Positions 18,311 to 25,940 of a stretch of DNA of 32,080 nucleotides are shown here, piece after piece. The stretch is from NCBI GenBank assembly GCA_900317575.1, contig ONHH01000024.1, positions 1 to 32,080 of the forward strand. The letters are read 5' to 3'. A program made the position numbers and the translations under genes. The notes under the pieces were generated by a model. The model was not told the origin of the DNA and searched no databases. It saw nothing but the letters and a program-made list of their open reading frames with translations. Origin of the DNA: an uncultured Bacillota bacterium. Its GTDB lineage: Bacteria > Bacillota_I > Bacilli_A > ML615J-28 > CAG-313. The first letter of the stretch is position 1; every line of letters starts with the position of its first letter.

Positions 18311-18365
18311 TTTTCGCAAAATAATTTGCACAAACTCTTCATTTGCACAAATTATTTTTCACAAA
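18311..18365. repeat. Four TTT(G/T)C(A/G)CAAA boxes within an inverted repeat upstream of the peptidase
   Basis: ttttcgcaaa at 18311, tttgcacaaa at 18325 and 18342, ttttcacaaa at 18356; inverted pair aaaataatttg (18318-28)/caaattatttt (18348-58). Confidence 0.55.
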
Positions 18366-20671
18366 TTCTTATTTTTTTTTAAAATAAAATATAAAAGTGA
18401 AATACAACTTAGAAGTTCTACTAATACTATGCTCTTTTTTCCACACTTTTTCTTAGTAGGAGTTTCTTGTTTATTTAAAGTTTCATCATAAGATACCATT
18501 ATTTCATCAGATATCATACTCTTTCCACTTGAATATTTAACATTTAATCTTACTGCAAAATCTCCAGTTGCTAGATCGATATCACTAATTTCATATGTTC
18601 TTGCATCTCTTTCTGCATACATAGATATATATTTTTCTTGACTTACTGGACGATATTCAATAAATATTGCTTCAATTTGTTTATCAGAATCATCAATATC
18701 AAAATTTAATTTAAGATTTTTATTATCTATATTTGTTGCAGTTAATGACTTAATTAATGGTTTATTAATATTAATAGTTGTGAATTCTAAATAATCTTCA
18801 CAATTCATATCTTTATTTAATAATTCATCGTGAACTACATATTCTACTTTAATTAAATAATTAGTGTTACGATTTAAATTATTAAATGTATATTTATCTC
18901 CAAATTGCTTTAAATCAATACTTTGAAGGACTTCTGTTTGTCCTGCTAATAATATAGAAGCTTTAGTAGATATATATTTACTATAATAAGTTGATACATA
19001 TTCAATAGTAGCTGATGTTGCATTTATATCTATTAATTCAATACCATGTCTTGGTGGTACATATTTTGCAGTGCTACCTTTTAAGTTAATATATCTTTCA
19101 ACAGAGTTAATTGTATAATACAATTTAACATCATATTCAGTATCTTCATTTAAATCATTAATAACAATATTACCATTTTCGCCTGGATAGAATTTTTTAT
19201 TATTACATTCAGCATATATATTACTAATTACATCTTTATTATAATCATTAATTTTTGATAACGTAATTGATGTTCTAGTTGAATCTTTTCCATAACAAGC
19301 ATATCCAGGATCTCTAACAACAAAGAAGCATCCAGAAATGACATTTCTTTGTCTAACTCCTGAATCATTTGATTCATTTACAATATCAAATGAACCGGTT
19401 GGAGTTCTAACAATAGCTGTTACTGAACCACCACCATCTTGTTGATATGCCTCTACTACGCCATAATTCTTTAAAATAGCATTTGATTCATCATGATCAG
19501 TACCAGTAAAGTTACCATTATTAACTAATCCTCTCGCAACCGTCATTAGCACATATGTACCATCTGCTTTGCGGCCAAAAATTGATCGATTATAACGATT
19601 AGTATTATATGGAGCAGTACTTTCAACATCAGCGTTACCCTTTCTTTGTAAAGAATGATATCCAAATGCTGATTCAATATTATTTAATTTATCATCTATA
19701 TAATGTAATTGAACTCTTACTCTTGTTCCTTTGGTAAGAATTGATTCCAATCCATCTCCTTCAATACCAAAAGTAAATCTATTGAATGTATATGAATCAA
19801 ATATTTCGCTTACAGTACCCCTTCCAAACACAATATCTTCTTTTGAACCAACTGAATAAGTTCTAGAATTACTCATATATGCAAGTTCAGGATCTTCAAT
19901 TATATATAATTTTGATGAAGAATTTACTTCAATTGGATTGCAAATGCCATTTGATTCTTCATTATTATATGGAAACCAAACGGATATTTTTCCACTAGTT
20001 GGTGAAGAATTAATATTGTCTACATCATATATACTAAGAATGTTTCCATCATTATCTAATATTTCAAGTTTCAAACCGCTAAAAATTTCTGCTGCATTAT
20101 TTGTTGATGTCGGATAAATAAATGGTTCATTATATTTATTATTTGATATACCTATAAAGTTACTATAATTTCCAGTTGGACTAGCTGCAAATCTTCTTTC
20201 GCCATCCATAAACAAAGGATAATATGGTTGAGGAGAATAAAAGAATGCACCTGATGTATATAAATCTGAACCAAAATATTGGAAATATTGATCTCCATTT
20301 ACACCAGCAGTAACAATCCAACCTGGGTGAGTCTTTTCATAATCCTCTGCTATATATGTCAAACCAGCTCTACCATATTTATCATTACCACTTTGAATAG
20401 CCCATGCAACTAATTTTGAATTAATTCCATCAGTTTTCATTTCTAAAAGATTAATCATTTGATTGCCATCAGAAGAATATCTTGTAGAAGTAGTTGTACC
20501 ATATGCTTTTAAATGTTTAGTTCCATATATATCCTGAACTTCTTCGGTTTTAGGAGTCCATGACGCTTTACCATTATCAGATGTATTTGCATTAAATTTG
20601 TTTAAATTAATAAACATTAAACTAATTAATAATGTAATTATAAAAGAAAAAATGTATTTATATAGTTTCAT
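18359..20671 (-). CDS. Secreted phosphodiester glycosidase-family (NAGPA/DUF2233-like) protein with FN3-like stalk and KKCGKK-TM-basic C-terminal tail (paralog 2)
   Basis: N-terminal signal peptide; GVNGDQYF, NRSIFGRKADGTYVLMTV and AYQQDGGGSVT motifs; FN3-like DLNEDTEYDV and NLNRNTNYLI. Start moved to ATG 20671 behind GAGGTG. Confidence 0.8.
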   Translation of the reverse strand: MKLYKYIFSFIITLLISLMFINLNKFNANTSDNGKASWTPKTEEVQDIYGTKHLKAYGTTTSTRYSSDGNQMINLLEMKTDGINSKLVAWAIQSGNDKYGRAGLTYIAEDYEKTHPGWIVTAGVNGDQYFQYFGSDLYTSGAFFYSPQPYYPLFMDGERRFAASPTGNYSNFIGISNNKYNEPFIYPTSTNNAAEIFSGLKLEILDNDGNILSIYDVDNINSSPTSGKISVWFPYNNEESNGICNPIEVNSSSKLYIIEDPELAYMSNSRTYSVGSKEDIVFGRGTVSEIFDSYTFNRFTFGIEGDGLESILTKGTRVRVQLHYIDDKLNNIESAFGYHSLQRKGNADVESTAPYNTNRYNRSIFGRKADGTYVLMTVARGLVNNGNFTGTDHDESNAILKNYGVVEAYQQDGGGSVTAIVRTPTGSFDIVNESNDSGVRQRNVISGCFFVVRDPGYACYGKDSTRTSITLSKINDYNKDVISNIYAECNNKKFYPGENGNIVINDLNEDTEYDVKLYYTINSVERYINLKGSTAKYVPPRHGIELIDINATSATIEYVSTYYSKYISTKASILLAGQTEVLQSIDLKQFGDKYTFNNLNRNTNYLIKVEYVVHDELLNKDMNCEDYLEFTTININKPLIKSLTATNIDNKNLKLNFDIDDSDKQIEAIFIEYRPVSQEKYISMYAERDARTYEISDIDLATGDFAVRLNVKYSSGKSMISDEIMVSYDETLNKQETPTKKKCGKKSIVLVELLSCISLLYFILKKNKNL

Positions 20672-20727
20672 AATAATCACCTCATGAAAAATATATCATA
20701 TTTTGACATTATATTCTATAAATTAAC

Positions 20728-20768
20728 AAATAAAAAACTTAGTGTATTTTAAATTTACACTAAGTTTT
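20728..20768 (-). terminator. Intrinsic terminator between the two NAGPA-like genes
   Basis: 13-bp stem AAAACTTAGTGTA (20734-46)/TACACTAAGTTTT (20756-68), flanked by A/T tracts. Confidence 0.8.
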
Positions 20769-20784
20769 ATTTTATTATTTTATA

Positions 20785-23076
20785 TTACTTTTTTCTTCTA
20801 ATAACAAACGCTAGTAATGTAGATGCAGTTAATAAACCAACAATTAATTCTGCATTTTTCTTTCCACATTTTTTAGTTTTTTCAGGAGCTGGGGCTGGAG
20901 TATCAGGTGTTTCAGGAGCTTTTTGCATTTCATAATGTAGAACTGAACTTTCTAATTTAGTTCCTTTAAATACAAGAACTAATTTTATATCATAAGAATT
21001 CTTTGTAAAATCTAGACCAGTTACATCAACACTACCAGTTCTTGCGGTTAAAACTTGATATTCAGCACCATTTAAAGATATATATGCTTTTTCAACTACT
21101 CTATCTGGGTCAGAATATTTATATGAAATAGTTACACTATTATCTGTTTTAGAACTTTCACTAAAATTACTAATAGTTGGTAATTCATAATCAGTTGTAT
21201 GTAATATTAATTCTTCTGTACTACCACTAAATGTCTTTTTGCTTACAGGATCATATATATCATATGTAAAATAGTATGGATATTCTTGATCATATAATAA
21301 GTCAGTTGCAGTATATTCAGCAGCACTACCCATATTAAATGTTTGATCACCTAAATGAATTACAATATTAGATATATTTTCAGCATAATCTGTATTACAT
21401 TTTACAAATGTAGCTGATGTCTTACTAACAGATTTTAATTCTACTGTTTCAGTTGGGAATACATAAGCACCAGTTTTAAAAGTCTTATTAAATGATGATT
21501 TTTTAGTTTGGCCATTAATAGTAATATCATATTTAATATTTAATTCATATTCAGTCTTTTCATCTAAACCATCTAATACTAATTCACTATCATTAAAATC
21601 ATATTCTTTTCCTAATAGGCCTACTTTAATATTAGATATTGTAGCATTACCTGCAACACTTGCTTTAGTTAATTTAACAGAATGATATGTAATATTGCTA
21701 TCTAAGCATTGAACACCTGGATCTCTAATTACAAAGAATAGATAACTAAAGTTTTCTCTTGGTAATTCTGGCTTTCCTGAATCTTTAGGGAAATTAGTTA
21801 CCTTAAATGATCCATCTGAATTTCTAACCATGGCAGTTACAGATCCACCACCATCCATTTGATACATATCTTGAACACCATAATATTCTGCTAAAGCATT
21901 ACATTCTGTCCAAGTCATACCAAATGAACCAAGTGATGTTACATAGTCAGCAGTTAATAATACATATGTACCATCTGCTTTTCTACCGAATAATGCTCTT
22001 GAATAATGGTTAGTATCATATGACGCCGTTGTTGAATTATCAATACCATTTACACGATGACATGAATGATATCCTATTGCTTCTTCAACTTTATTCATTG
22101 CTTCATTTGCAAAATATTGTTCAACTTTAATTCTTTTTCCATTAGACAAAGCACTAATAACTTCTGGATTAGATGTTTCAACAGCAAATTGTCCTTTAGT
22201 TAATGTATAAGATGTAAGTGTATCATTTGATATATATCCTTTTGCAAAAATTGTATTAGTATTATAATGTCCAGGATAATATTCATCATCACCATTTTGA
22301 TACATACTCATAAATGCAGTTTCTGCATTTTCAACAATAAATAGTTTATTAGTTGTTGATACAGGTTGATCTTCAGCAACCTGAGAAAGTCTCTTACTGA
22401 AGTGGAAACACCAAACACTTGTGCCGTTTGCACTAGCATTTTTATTTAATGCTTCAACTGGGAATGTTTTTAATACCGTATTATTTTCATCTATAACACT
22501 TAATACATATCCTCCAGCTCCTTCTGAAGATACAAAACTATTAACAGAGCCATCATTTGTAAAACCAATTACACTAGTTGCATTACCAGTTGCACTAACA
22601 GTAAATAATTTATCACCATTAGAAACCATTGGATAATATGGTGAAGGTTCCATTATTGCTGATCCATCTAATCCTAAATCTGTACCAAATTTAAAGAAAT
22701 ATTGGTCAGCATTAATTCCACTTACAACAATCCAGCCAGGATTTTTTGCTTCATAATCTTTTGCGGCTTGAATGATATTCTTTCTTACATATGATGAACT
22801 ATCCTTTTGAACAGCCCAATTGACTAATTTTGATGAAAAGCCATCAGTCTTCATTGCAAAAGCATTAATGAATTGTCCATAATTTGCGCCTTTTGTTGTA
22901 GTTGTAGCTTTAACAATTTGATGATCAACTCCATAAACCACTTCTTTTTCAACATTATTAATTGTTAAAGTACTTGTGCCAGTACTATCACTGACAGAGT
23001 CTGCTTTAAAATTAACAAGATTAAAAGAAGCTACCATAATAGCAAATGCTATTATTGCAAACAAAACTTTTTTCAT
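20785..23076 (-). CDS. Secreted phosphodiester glycosidase-family (NAGPA/DUF2233-like) protein with FN3-like stalk, Pro-rich linker and KKCGKK-TM-basic C-terminal tail (paralog 1)
   Basis: Signal peptide MKKVLFAIIAFAIMVASFNLVNFKA; GINADQYF, SRALFGRKADGTYVLLT, GMTWTE and MYQMDGGGSVT motifs; FN3-like GLDEKTEYEL and DLLYDQEY. Confidence 0.82.
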   Translation of the reverse strand: MKKVLFAIIAFAIMVASFNLVNFKADSVSDSTGTSTLTINNVEKEVVYGVDHQIVKATTTTKGANYGQFINAFAMKTDGFSSKLVNWAVQKDSSSYVRKNIIQAAKDYEAKNPGWIVVSGINADQYFFKFGTDLGLDGSAIMEPSPYYPMVSNGDKLFTVSATGNATSVIGFTNDGSVNSFVSSEGAGGYVLSVIDENNTVLKTFPVEALNKNASANGTSVWCFHFSKRLSQVAEDQPVSTTNKLFIVENAETAFMSMYQNGDDEYYPGHYNTNTIFAKGYISNDTLTSYTLTKGQFAVETSNPEVISALSNGKRIKVEQYFANEAMNKVEEAIGYHSCHRVNGIDNSTTASYDTNHYSRALFGRKADGTYVLLTADYVTSLGSFGMTWTECNALAEYYGVQDMYQMDGGGSVTAMVRNSDGSFKVTNFPKDSGKPELPRENFSYLFFVIRDPGVQCLDSNITYHSVKLTKASVAGNATISNIKVGLLGKEYDFNDSELVLDGLDEKTEYELNIKYDITINGQTKKSSFNKTFKTGAYVFPTETVELKSVSKTSATFVKCNTDYAENISNIVIHLGDQTFNMGSAAEYTATDLLYDQEYPYYFTYDIYDPVSKKTFSGSTEELILHTTDYELPTISNFSESSKTDNSVTISYKYSDPDRVVEKAYISLNGAEYQVLTARTGSVDVTGLDFTKNSYDIKLVLVFKGTKLESSVLHYEMQKAPETPDTPAPAPEKTKKCGKKNAELIVGLLTASTLLAFVIRRKK

Positions 23077-23087
23077 TTAATCCTCCT

Positions 23088-23966
23088 CTATTTATTATAT
23101 TTTCCTAATTTTTTCTCTTTATAATCATCTTTTGCTTTATCAATCATTATGAATTTATCACGGTAATTCTTATCTCTTGTTCTAATTTCTTTTCTTTCTT
23201 GATGAGCAAGTTTCTTATCAATTTTAATATACTCTGGATCAATATATTTATATTCATCCCATAAATAATATCTATTTCTGGTTTCATAATATAAATCCAT
23301 TATATCTCTTTCATAAGCTTTTAAGGTAATAAATAATAGTTTTCTTGATATTGTACGATAGTTTTGATTTCTAAAAGCACAGTTTTGTGCTAATACTACA
23401 TCATATCCTAGGTTTCTAATTCTTAAACAGTATTCATAATCAAAAGTAGTTTGATAGTATTCAGTTTTAATGAAGGGACTTTCTTTATATATATGTAAAT
23501 TTAATAACGCACCTAATAATCGACATCCTTTAATAGTTCTATATGCTTCAGATTTTCTTTCATGAATCTCACATGCTAAAAGGGGCATAGGAGTTAAAAT
23601 GGCTAATTTTGATAAGTCAGAAGTAGCTAAATATTTCTTTAATTCAGAAAATACACTCTCCTCATAGAAATATCCAGGACGTATATAAGTAACAAAATCA
23701 GCATTTTCTTGTATAGATTTATTAACTAATTCTTGATAAATCTCTGCTTCCCCATATCCATATGCATCTACATATTCAATTTTTTGTGATGCATTTATGC
23801 TAGAAATAAACTTTTTAATATCTGATTTTGTCTGATTATATATATATAATTTATCTAAATGTGGTAAATATGTAGCAAGATTATCTAAATATTGTTTAAT
23901 GTCTTCATCAGAATAAATAGGTCTATCAACAAAATATCCAGCATATATTCTCAATTCTAAAGCCAT
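23088..23966 (-). CDS. Glycosyltransferase family 2, rhamnosyltransferase-like, with degenerate nucleotide-sugar site
   Basis: C-terminal half matches the RfbF-type pattern (GALLNL..., FDYEYCLRIRNLGYDV, YYETRNRYYL). The N-terminal VDN and DQD motifs are replaced by YNQ and RPG. Confidence 0.7.
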   Translation of the reverse strand: MALELRIYAGYFVDRPIYSDEDIKQYLDNLATYLPHLDKLYIYNQTKSDIKKFISSINASQKIEYVDAYGYGEAEIYQELVNKSIQENADFVTYIRPGYFYEESVFSELKKYLATSDLSKLAILTPMPLLACEIHERKSEAYRTIKGCRLLGALLNLHIYKESPFIKTEYYQTTFDYEYCLRIRNLGYDVVLAQNCAFRNQNYRTISRKLLFITLKAYERDIMDLYYETRNRYYLWDEYKYIDPEYIKIDKKLAHQERKEIRTRDKNYRDKFIMIDKAKDDYKEKKLGKYNK

Positions 23967-23969
23967 ATT

Positions 23970-25940
23970 TTAACCTACTTGATTTTCTAATTCTACTAAT
24001 TTATTATAATTTGTAACAAGACTCTTACCTTGATTTGAAATAGTATTATATAAATTTCTTGCGTATGAAACAGTTGTTTTATTAACTACTGCTCTAGCTG
24101 TAGTTAAATTATATATATACATTTCTGTCATTTCAATCTTTTGTTGATCAACAAATTGCTCATTAACTATCCATTTAGCATATAGAACTTTATTATTTCC
24201 TATCTCTGTAACTGCACTTCCATTACATTCTGGATTATCATACCATCCACCAAATGTATATCCTCTAAGATGAATATTGGAATTAATATCAGTAAAATTA
24301 TTAACAACACATGCACAATTTTGAAACATATCAATCATTCTACGAGATTGAACATAAGAAGTTTCATCAGTAAAGTAGAAGAATTTACCAATATCTACTG
24401 TTGGAGCCCATGCTTCAGCAAATAAATCAGCTCCATAATTATTTAAACTTGCATATCCTTCATCTAATCTCCAATAAGCAAAGAACAAATAAATAAATGG
24501 TAAAAAGTCTGTATATAAATTATTAATATTGCAGAAACCTAAGAAATAATCTTCTGTTTGGTTATCATATATACCATTGATATCTTTTTGAAGTAGATAT
24601 TCTCCCGCAATATCACCTATTGCTCTCATTTCTCCTCTTCCATAATTATAATCGCCTGCTAGACTAATAAATGATTCAAGACTATTAATCTTATTATCAA
24701 TTAAATCGTTCTTTAGTGGGTGATTCATTGAAATGAAAAAGTAAAAATCTGTAAAGAATGCTTTAAATAATTGTTCTCTAGATGTATAAATACCTTGATT
24801 TAATCCATTAGAGAATATATATTTAACTTCATCTTTATCATTATTGATGAAATTTAATAGATATTCTAGTTTTCCATGATATGCTACAGATTTAGTATTT
24901 TCATCTAAATTATTATATTCTCTTTCTAATTCTAGAATTCTATCCTTATTAACAAACTCAGTTCCAACTTGAATACTCATTACTTCTTTATTAAATGGAG
25001 CTGCCGTAAGTATTGCTTCTCTATATAAAGCATCAATACGTCCTTTAAGTACTTCATAATTAGAATAATTAGTAATATAACCTTTTAATTCATTAGACAA
25101 TTTATTATATTTTTTATCAATATCGTTAGTTTTATATATATCACTAGCAATAATTGAATCTTGATTTAATAATTCATTGATTAAATCACTAACTTCTTTA
25201 GCTGGTTTTAATGTGTTTGTTTTCTTTTTTGCAGCATCTAATTTATCAAAATTTGTTATTTTTAGTCTCTTTGATGGTTTTAACGATAAATATTCATCAT
25301 ATACTTCATTAATTAAATCAAAGTCATCAAAGCTAATTTCATCAGGTAATGAATCAATTCTTTGAATTACATATTCAACATTATATTCATATTCTGCAAA
25401 TAATTCTACAGTAGAATTTTCATTAATTTTAATTGTAGATGGATTAATTGTTGTACCATCACTATCACACCATCTCAAAAATGAACAGTTTAATTTAACA
25501 GGATCAGGTAAATTTATTGATTCAAAATTTAATTGCTTTAATAATTCTTTATCAATTGATCCTTTATTTAAATTAAGTTTTATTTCTTTTTGAGTAATAA
25601 AAGTTTGTATTACTGGACTAATAGTTATATTTTTATCAGTCTTTATAGGACTAACTAATTCTTTTCCTGATTCATCAATCCACTTTACAAATATATATTT
25701 ATTATTTCTTTGAATTACACTTGTATAATCTTCTTTTTCATCAACAATTATATCATTGATATATATAGTATTCTCTGTAACAGTTGGAAGTTCAAATGAT
25801 TTATTCTTTTCAACTATTAATTCACTATTATATTGAAATCCATATTCATTTTCAGCAAATGTAATTGTGTAAGTTTGCTTTTTACATGCACTAAACACAA
25901 GTAAAAATAATAATAAAACACCTATAATTATTTTTTTCAT
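23970..25940 (-). CDS. Surface lipoprotein with InlB B-repeat-like units and helical repeats, 656 aa
   Basis: Lipobox FSA-C19; B-repeat-like RGYTFGGWYDN...VLYAKW and LPDPVKLNCSFLRW...LFAEY; repeated Y..L......(I/V)TN(Y/F)..L helical units. Confidence 0.8.
   Translation of the reverse strand: MKKIIIGVLLLFLLVFSACKKQTYTITFAENEYGFQYNSELIVEKNKSFELPTVTENTIYINDIIVDEKEDYTSVIQRNNKYIFVKWIDESGKELVSPIKTDKNITISPVIQTFITQKEIKLNLNKGSIDKELLKQLNFESINLPDPVKLNCSFLRWCDSDGTTINPSTIKINENSTVELFAEYEYNVEYVIQRIDSLPDEISFDDFDLINEVYDEYLSLKPSKRLKITNFDKLDAAKKKTNTLKPAKEVSDLINELLNQDSIIASDIYKTNDIDKKYNKLSNELKGYITNYSNYEVLKGRIDALYREAILTAAPFNKEVMSIQVGTEFVNKDRILELEREYNNLDENTKSVAYHGKLEYLLNFINNDKDEVKYIFSNGLNQGIYTSREQLFKAFFTDFYFFISMNHPLKNDLIDNKINSLESFISLAGDYNYGRGEMRAIGDIAGEYLLQKDINGIYDNQTEDYFLGFCNINNLYTDFLPFIYLFFAYWRLDEGYASLNNYGADLFAEAWAPTVDIGKFFYFTDETSYVQSRRMIDMFQNCACVVNNFTDINSNIHLRGYTFGGWYDNPECNGSAVTEIGNNKVLYAKWIVNEQFVDQQKIEMTEMYIYNLTTARAVVNKTTVSYARNLYNTISNQGKSLVTNYNKLVELENQVG

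Follow-up and report, generated by a model that had tools for sequence, protein, structure and literature searches.

The subject of this study is a short C-terminal tail carried by two secreted proteins of an uncultured Bacillota bacterium. Both are encoded in a stretch of 32,080 nucleotides (assembly GCA_900317575.1, contig ONHH01000024.1, positions 1 to 32,080 of the forward strand), the whole of which is referred to here as the window. The two proteins, products of tandem open reading frames (ORFs) on the minus strand with 32% identity to each other overall, match the NAGPA family of Pfam (PF09992) with E values of 9.3e-11 for protein 1 (residues 315-450, window about 19331-19738) and 5.5e-12 for protein 2 (residues 289-434, window about 21775-22212). 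Protein 1 also has an FN3-like C-terminal stalk, with weak matches to fn3 of Pfam. The translated C-terminal ends read ETPTKKKCGKKSIVLVELLSCISLLYFILKKNKNL in protein 1 and PAPAPEKTKKCGKKNAELIVGLLTASTLLAFVIRRKK in protein 2. In each, a KKCGKK motif precedes a hydrophobic helix of 18-19 residues, and KKNKNL (protein 1) or RRKK (protein 2) completes the protein before the stop codon (Table 1). The first-pass annotation, which regarded this tail as a candidate protein-sorting signal, had quoted both translations and both cysteine codons, and these match the ORFs exactly; the N-terminal signals that it had described are likewise present, as a hydrophobic signal-like segment at the start of each protein.

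Table 1. The two tail-bearing proteins of the window (window positions) and the two Lgt paralogs of the same genome (contig and locus positions)
Feature	Position	Strand	Basis or description
Protein 1, secreted NAGPA-type (phosphodiester glycosidase)	18359..20680	minus	773 amino acids (aa) from GTG; 770 aa from ATG at 20671
Protein 1, N-terminal signal-like hydrophobic segment MKLYKYIFSFIITLLISLMFINLNKFNA	20588..20671	minus	read from sequence; limits approximate
Tail 1, KKCGKK signature motif	18434..18451	minus	pattern match and translation; Cys codon 18443-18445
Tail 1, hydrophobic helix SIVLVELLSCISLLYFIL	18380..18433	minus	translation and hydrophobicity scans; mean Kyte-Doolittle (KD) value 2.56
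Tail 1, basic tip KKNKNL and stop codon	18359..18379	minus	translation
Protein 2, secreted NAGPA-type, 763 aa	20785..23076	minus	ORF and Pfam
Protein 2, N-terminal signal-like segment MKKVLFAIIAFAIMVASFNLVNFKA	23002..23076	minus	read from sequence; limits approximate
Tail 2, KKCGKK signature motif	20857..20874	minus	pattern match and translation; Cys codon 20866-20868
Tail 2, hydrophobic helix NAELIVGLLTASTLLAFVI	20800..20856	minus	translation and hydrophobicity scan; mean KD 2.16
Tail 2, basic tip RRKK and stop codon	20785..20799	minus	translation
Lgt-1	C70 (L117:769-2286)	minus	506 aa; normal Lgt fused to PpaX-like HAD phosphatase; 172 bits vs 118.9 (TIGR00544)
Lgt-2	C98 (L118:1495-2946)	plus	484 aa; divergent; 91.5 bits vs TIGR00544 cut-off 118.9

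The whole genome to which the window belongs (G000; 1.43 Mb, 140 contigs, 95.8% complete) was scanned in six frames. Seven KKCGKK tails were observed, where the composition of the 1202 ORFs (435,995 residues) predicts 0.013; this is more than chance would give, and all seven motifs lie 22-24 residues from the stop. Six of the carriers are NAGPA paralogs and the seventh is a glycosyl-hydrolase-like protein of the GHL10 type (PF02638, E 1e-50). A motif-blind scan for a C-terminal helix with a basic tip revealed six further tails with a cysteine at the same place, in the contexts KKCGSK, KKCKKK, KKSCKK (twice), SGCN and AGCT. These are carried by a second GHL10 protein, two purple-acid-phosphatase-like metallophosphoesterases, a BspA-type leucine-rich repeat (LRR) protein and two proteins without a Pfam match, bringing the total to 13 cysteine tails. 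An N-terminal signal-like segment was found in 11 of the 13 proteins, and the other two are cut by contig ends. The tail thus stands behind at least four unrelated Pfam architectures (NAGPA; GHL10; Metallophos with Pur_ac_phosph_N and Flg_new; BspA LRR_5) and the two unassigned proteins in this genome alone, and a motif limited to the paralog pair is ruled out by the number of tails and the variety of their carriers.

A second motif-blind scan considered ORFs of at least 200 residues with no more than two hydrophobic segments, one of them C-terminal. The cysteine box was present in 12 of the 22 ORFs obtained, and five signal-bearing ORFs were without it; the cytoplasmic ends of these five anchors differ from those of the cysteine tails and are mostly longer. 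Upon ungapped alignment of the seven KKCGKK proteins on the cysteine (21 pairs), the 7-residue motif was 93% identical, against 33% for the helix and 9% for the 29-residue linker, so that the contrast drawn earlier between an identical motif and heavily diverged stalks is borne out across the set. One of the NAGPA proteins (C27:5081-7453, minus strand) has a lipobox-like sequence, …ITFSSCKKE, at its N terminus in addition to the KKCGKK tail at its C terminus, and may be held at both ends.

In the other genomes of the genus, the DNA pattern AARAARTGYGGNAARAAR was found in 3-7 copies in 8 of 10, with no occurrence there of a reversed-pattern control. In other genera it occurred as single copies in 4 of 30 genomes, about as frequently as the control. 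Of the 43 loci in genomes other than the window's, 42 were examined; the one omitted lies at a contig start. At 35 of the 42 the motif is in frame and 22-24 residues before the stop, at two it is in frame and not part of a tail, and at five it is out of frame, among them all four loci from other genera. Tail carriers within the genus include NAGPA and GHL10 proteins and proteins that combine Metallophos, Pur_ac_phosph_N and the Listeria-Bacteroides repeat. When 185,579 species were scanned for KKKCGKKS, 105 places matched the pattern and 15 loci were confirmed, all in metagenome-assembled genomes (MAGs) of this genus; their contigs come from uncultured gut MAGs labelled Erysipelotrichaceae, Bacilli, Firmicutes or 'Staphylococcaceae' bacterium.

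The exact motif is only part of the picture. Profile A1, built from 42 tails, also matched other genera of the family, in which the box reads KKGCKK(S/K), GCKKE, KKGCGS and similar. The NAGPA homologs of seemingly negative genomes were found to have Gly-rich boxes, for example GGGCAFG, GGCSFG and SSCNFG. KKCGKK as the signal, the form in which it had been proposed, is accordingly true within one genus, but sister genera have KKGCKK or GGC. The putative signal is better written as [K/G][K/G]-(G-C or C-G)-[K/S/G], which covers the KKGCKK and GGC forms.

For a closer description, 96 tails were collected from 19 genomes. The cysteine is the sole invariant column in alignments A2, A4 and A6 (71, 70 and 52 tails) and is thus kept in homologs across genera, with the reservation that its invariance is inflated by collection with a cysteine-containing pattern or profile; the motif-blind scans of the window's genome provide an independent check that partly offsets this bias. 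A Gly adjoins the cysteine in 92 of the 96 tails. The distance from the cysteine to the end of the protein is 24-29 residues (25-27 in 93/96), and the protein ends 3-6 residues past the helix in every tail. Within three residues of the cysteine there are four or five Lys or Arg in 73/96 tails, and the tips together contain 221 Lys and 106 Arg. Polar positions of the helix are moderately conserved, with E at +6 in 34/96 and S at +10 in 25/96. Searches of a protein index, for which the tail is too short, gave at least nine matches among the 8000 candidates listed when the tail profile was used, and only the query itself when the tail region of the window protein was used.

At the level of the order, which comprises 106 genomes in two families (f1 and f2), the Lys-rich profile A2 (E <= 1e-4) detected tails in 36 of 48 f1 and 14 of 57 f2 genomes. 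With the broader profile A6 (E <= 1e-3) these numbers rose to 45 of 48 and 28 of 57, and 22 of 31 genera had tails. Up to 13 copies occur per genome. In an even sample of the class, for which the figures rest on the narrower profile A2, tails were found in 17/23 f1 and 5/28 f2 genomes and, outside the order, in 2 of 347 genomes of 28 other Bacilli families, with one match each. On these counts the signal keeps to a single order of uncultured gut Bacilli. This order resembles RFN20 or ML615J-28 as characterized in PMC10868615: uncultured gut bacteria, poor in sortase and partly without peptidoglycan.

Several further features of the tail genes were observed in individual relatives. In better assembled genomes they lie in multi-gene islands within tens of kb (G006:C3 332-397 kb; G062:C1 292-343 kb; G021:C6 28-56 kb). 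In G042 and G049, several matches to the tail profile fall in open frames of 32-75 residues (for example G042:C4:292923-293009 and G049:C32:1750-1842), which may represent disrupted genes, the ends of contigs or tail-like peptides that stand alone. Three NAGPA homologs of G018 (sister genus g9; L120, L124 and L128) are without the cysteine tail; their C-terminal ends consist of GLPTGA or GLSTGA, a Gly-rich helix and KRKK. One of them passes the LPXTG_anchor model (16.7 bits, cut-off 15.9); neither a sortase nor a penicillin-binding protein (PBP) was found in this 92% complete genome.

Comparison with catalogued signals was made for 19 cysteine tails: the two of the window, ten from other genera and seven of the GGC type. 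None reached the cut-off of any CTERM or LPXTG model of NCBIfam. The best scores were 17.5 bits for Heimdall-CTERM (cut-off 24), 14.8 for JDVT-CTERM (27), 14.3 for LPXTG_anchor (15.9), 10 for MYXO-CTERM (20) and 7.5 for Synerg-CTERM (22.5), with no match for CGP-CTERM, and all of these matches span the helix and tip, not the motif. That KKCGKK was not recognised as one of the known CTERM signals was thus correct as far as curated models are concerned. Full-text literature searches turned up no description of the tail; they led only to the Haft preprints, the paper on myxosortase, tertiapin from bee venom and unrelated work. The Haft preprint (10.1101/2023.06.07.544157) makes no mention of Firmicutes, Bacillota, Mollicutes or Erysipelotrichia.

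The closest parallel is with MYXO-CTERM and its enzyme MrtX (TIGR03901; 10.1101/2023.06.07.544157; Guo, Haft & Wall, PMC11980579), with which the tail shares the tripartite layout, the position at the extreme C terminus, an invariant cysteine beside Gly, many copies per genome, unrelated exported carriers and a restricted lineage. Cysteine-dependent cleavage of MYXO-CTERM by a CPBP enzyme has been demonstrated by experiment (PMC11980579). In contrast to that system, only one of the 19 tails matched the MYXO-CTERM model, at 10 bits and hence below the cut-off, no match to a myxosortase equivalog (MrtX, MrtC or MrtP) was found in the window's genome, and the presence of CPBP proteins does not follow that of the signal. 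Since the host belongs to a Bacilli lineage, no outer membrane or type II secretion step would be expected. The Synerg-, JDVT- and CGP-CTERM signals also contain a cysteine in a tripartite layout and occupy narrow lineages; the predicted enzymes are the CPBP proteins MrtS, MrtJ and MrtA, as given in the preprint (10.1101/2023.06.07.544157). They differ from the present tails in motif chemistry as well as in score, and no CPBP gene was found here that lies next to the tail genes or co-varies with them.

Other systems share fewer features with the tail. LPXTG and sortase A resemble it in signal position, in layout and in the kind of protein carried, namely enzymes and repeat proteins of the Firmicutes surface, but the cysteine tails are without an LPXTG motif, reach at most 14.3 bits, occur in an order where sortase is rare and persist in genomes without PBPs. 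In PGF-CTERM, whose archaeosortase A replaces the C-terminal helix with a lipid in single-membrane archaea (as described in 10.1101/2023.06.07.544157), the motif has no cysteine. Neither rhomboid (PF01694) nor exosortase/archaeosortase (PF09721) genes were found in the 95.8% complete genome of the window, which separates the tail from PGF-CTERM and, by the lack of cognate enzyme families there, from GlyGly-CTERM/rhombosortase and PEP-CTERM/exosortase. As in the lipobox recognised by Lgt and Lsp, the cysteine comes after a small residue, Gly in the KKGCKK and GGC forms, and would lie on the outer side of the membrane; here, however, it lies 3-4 residues before a C-terminal helix and not after an N-terminal hydrophobic core, and in KKCGKK it is preceded by Lys. 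On these comparisons, the tail is best described as a putative new, Lys-flanked variant of the cysteine-type C-terminal sorting signals.

The envelope of these bacteria bears on how such a tail might be used. No sortase (PF04203) was matched in the window's genome, and only 2 of the 106 genomes of the order have one, in agreement with the proposal that surface proteins are anchored without an LPXTG sortase. The same proposal placed the tail in a probably wall-less lineage. The window's genome is probably wall-less, because no PBP transpeptidase was found in it at 95.8% completeness and it has just two Mur-ligase-type genes, but the lineage as a whole is not: two PBPs are present in 43 of 48 genomes of the tail-bearing family f1 and in 7 of the 10 other genomes of the genus. 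In the congeners G001, G003 and G008 no PBP was found. Tails number 13 in G000, 4 in G001 and 10 in G003, and none was detected in G008 (69% complete). Since PBP-bearing relatives also carry tails, the tail is not an adaptation to wall loss, and a tie between the two is rejected. The split within the genus, four genomes without PBPs (G000, G001, G003, G008) against seven with two (G002, G004-G007, G009, G010), looks like a recent loss of peptidoglycan; the PBP-less genomes are also the smaller (1.0-1.4 Mb versus 1.4-2.1 Mb).

The tail is very probably an anchoring module, portable between proteins and selected for its cysteine. The module spans 30-35 residues: a Pro/Thr/Glu linker, a Lys-rich Cys-Gly box, a helix of 18-19 residues and a Lys/Arg tip of 3-6 residues. 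Its carriers are Sec-exported hydrolases and adhesin-like proteins from unrelated families. It is probably the way in which these sortase-poor bacteria hold surface proteins. After export, the helix would serve as the stop-transfer anchor, leaving the basic tip inside the cell and the cysteine on the outer membrane face. The thiol would then be acylated or lipidated, and a membrane-embedded endopeptidase, most plausibly CPBP/Rce1-like, would remove the helix and tip, leaving a C-terminal lipid to keep the enzyme on the cell surface. The chances that the cysteine is indeed modified and the helix removed appear evenly balanced. Lipidation or processing by a dedicated enzyme, also proposed in the first-pass annotation, is inferred here purely from analogy with MYXO-CTERM/myxosortase and PGF-CTERM/archaeosortase. 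As a tentative and more specific version, for which the odds are somewhat adverse, uncultured gut Firmicutes that have lost sortase may use a hitherto undescribed pathway similar to the CAAX processing of eukaryotes, with the Gly-Cys box lipidated on the outer face of the single membrane, the helix clipped and the C-terminal lipid holding the surface hydrolases. KKCGKK and KKGCKK with their flanking Lys would be this order's version of it, and the enzyme would be a new one or a re-purposed paralog of Lgt or CPBP.

A number of observations weigh against such a processing pathway, most of them concerning the enzyme. When candidates were profiled against the tails, none had a matching distribution or gene neighborhood, so that the dedicated enzyme envisaged earlier did not emerge. 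In favor of the pathway, a plausible class of protease is at hand, with two Rce1-like (CPBP) genes in the window's genome. CPBP-A (C19, 300 aa) has EExxxR, FxxxH and HxxxN motifs, which are kept, with N or D in the last position, in all 19 ORFs recovered from 20 orthologous loci; E198, E199, R203, H228, H285 and N289 are invariant in an alignment of 18 sequences. Its homologs are present in 24/24 f1 and 13/16 f2 genomes tested whatever their tail status, including genomes with few or no detected tails, and the CPBP family as a whole occurs in 104 of the 106 genomes of the order, with tails detected or not. Such near-universal presence does not discriminate, and speaks neither for nor against CPBP-A as the cognate enzyme. 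The best match of CPBP-A in NCBIfam is MroQ, with 37.9 bits where the cut-off is 270, and not a named myxosortase. Prediction of a complex between CPBP-A (alignment A5) and the tail (alignment A4), run without controls, scored 0.01 and 0.02, the mark being 0.32, and weighs on neither side. CPBP-B (C61, 267 aa), which has a zinc ribbon at its N terminus and lacks obvious His motifs, was found in 4/4 tail-bearing f1 genomes tested and in 0/6 tail-bearing f2 genomes; among tail-negative genomes it is absent from G012, G027, G034 and G040 and weak in G018. Restricted to f1, it cannot be a general partner and was rejected as such. In four walled relatives the gene for CPBP-B is found 1-3 kb away from that for the second PBP (G016:C22, G021:C52, G022:C18, G014:C56), and the window's genome retains it despite having no PBP.

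Two Lgt paralogs and LspA are also present in the window's genome. The region that reads GRWGNFVNQEAFG in Lgt-1 reads GRLGCFFAGCCYG in Lgt-2, which has an extra C-terminal helix and domain. The five genera that lack Lgt-2 all belong to the nine without detected tails (g9, g16, g17, g20, g21, g22, g26, g29 and g30), a coincidence with a hypergeometric chance of about 7e-4 if the genera are treated as independent, which they are not. Outside the order, where hardly any tails are known, 62 of 347 Bacilli genomes also have Lgt-2-type genes, which are therefore not specific; Lgt-2 was rejected as a specific partner on this ground and kept as a weak lead. To these points may be added the gene neighborhoods: the surroundings of the genome's 13 tail genes, out to 9 kb, have no recurring gene family other than the tail proteins, and the neighbors of the NAGPA pair in the window are housekeeping genes. 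The cysteine signals described so far have Arg-rich tips, in contrast to the Lys-rich flanks and Lys-dominated tip found here, and the use of cysteine in gathering the 96 tails, noted above, counts on the same side. Finally, the helix alone already anchors the protein in a single-membrane cell, so that cleavage is not needed for surface retention.

The last point leads to the main rival, a permanent type-I membrane anchor in which the helix is kept as part of a shuffled stalk-and-anchor module and the Lys box binds anionic lipid head groups. The cysteine could in that case serve a function such as an intermolecular disulfide pairing stalks, reversible S-acylation or metal binding. Such an anchor is a serious though rather doubtful possibility. 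It would account for the lack of an enzyme with matching distribution or neighborhood, the conserved polar positions at +6 and +10 could serve helix packing, the four or five basic residues near the cysteine in most tails suit head-group binding, and a helix is enough in a monoderm. However, a plain anchor has no need of an invariant Cys-Gly placed 25-27 residues from the end, or of a cytoplasmic portion restricted to 3-6 residues, and the non-cysteine anchors of the window's genome are free of these constraints. The layout is also shared by every known processed sorting signal, and the cysteine is retained while its neighbors shift from KKCGKK to KKGCKK to GGC. Covalent attachment, with the cysteine or the adjoining bond linked by a transpeptidase-like enzyme to peptidoglycan or another envelope polymer in place of LPXTG and sortase, is a good deal less probable. 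Most tail-bearing relatives do keep two PBPs while sortase is nearly absent from the order, which would suit such a replacement, but the tails in the PBP-less genomes G000, G001 and G003 indicate that a wall is not required, and no candidate transpeptidase was seen.

The two remaining explanations concern the origin of the tail. Divergent membership in a curated family (MYXO-, Synerg-, JDVT-, CGP- or Heimdall-CTERM, or LPXTG) would be in keeping with the weak sub-threshold matches, of which Heimdall-CTERM is the highest; with no tail at any cut-off and the matches covering helix and tip alone, it is most improbable. Shared ancestry alone, by which the tail would be a functionless relic of one paralog family, could draw on the predominance of NAGPA paralogs among the KKCGKK proteins of the window's genome, but the same tail on GHL10, metallophosphoesterase, LRR and unassigned proteins, and a motif so much better conserved than the adjoining linker, leave it hardly any probability at all. 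These results exclude both.

Directly upstream of the NAGPA pair, at 23088-25940 on the minus strand of the window, lie genes for proteins of 292 and 656 residues. The former is without a Pfam match and shows a weak rhamnosyltransferase-like match, and the latter is lipoprotein-like (…VFSACKKQ) with a Listeria-Bacteroides repeat. Together with the NAGPA pair, these genes may form one surface-glycan operon.

For an order almost without sortase, the results suggest that up to 13 large enzymes per genome are displayed by means of a cysteine-based C-terminal signal. Descriptions of cysteine-type sorting signals have so far come from Myxococcota, Synergistales and a small number of further lineages. 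If the cysteine is lipidated and the helix cleaved, such signals would extend to single-membrane Firmicutes, and the tail proteins would form a testable set of substrates for the enzyme concerned. A profile of the tail would also let annotation pipelines flag surface-exposed enzymes for the scavenging of glycans and phosphate in gut MAGs.

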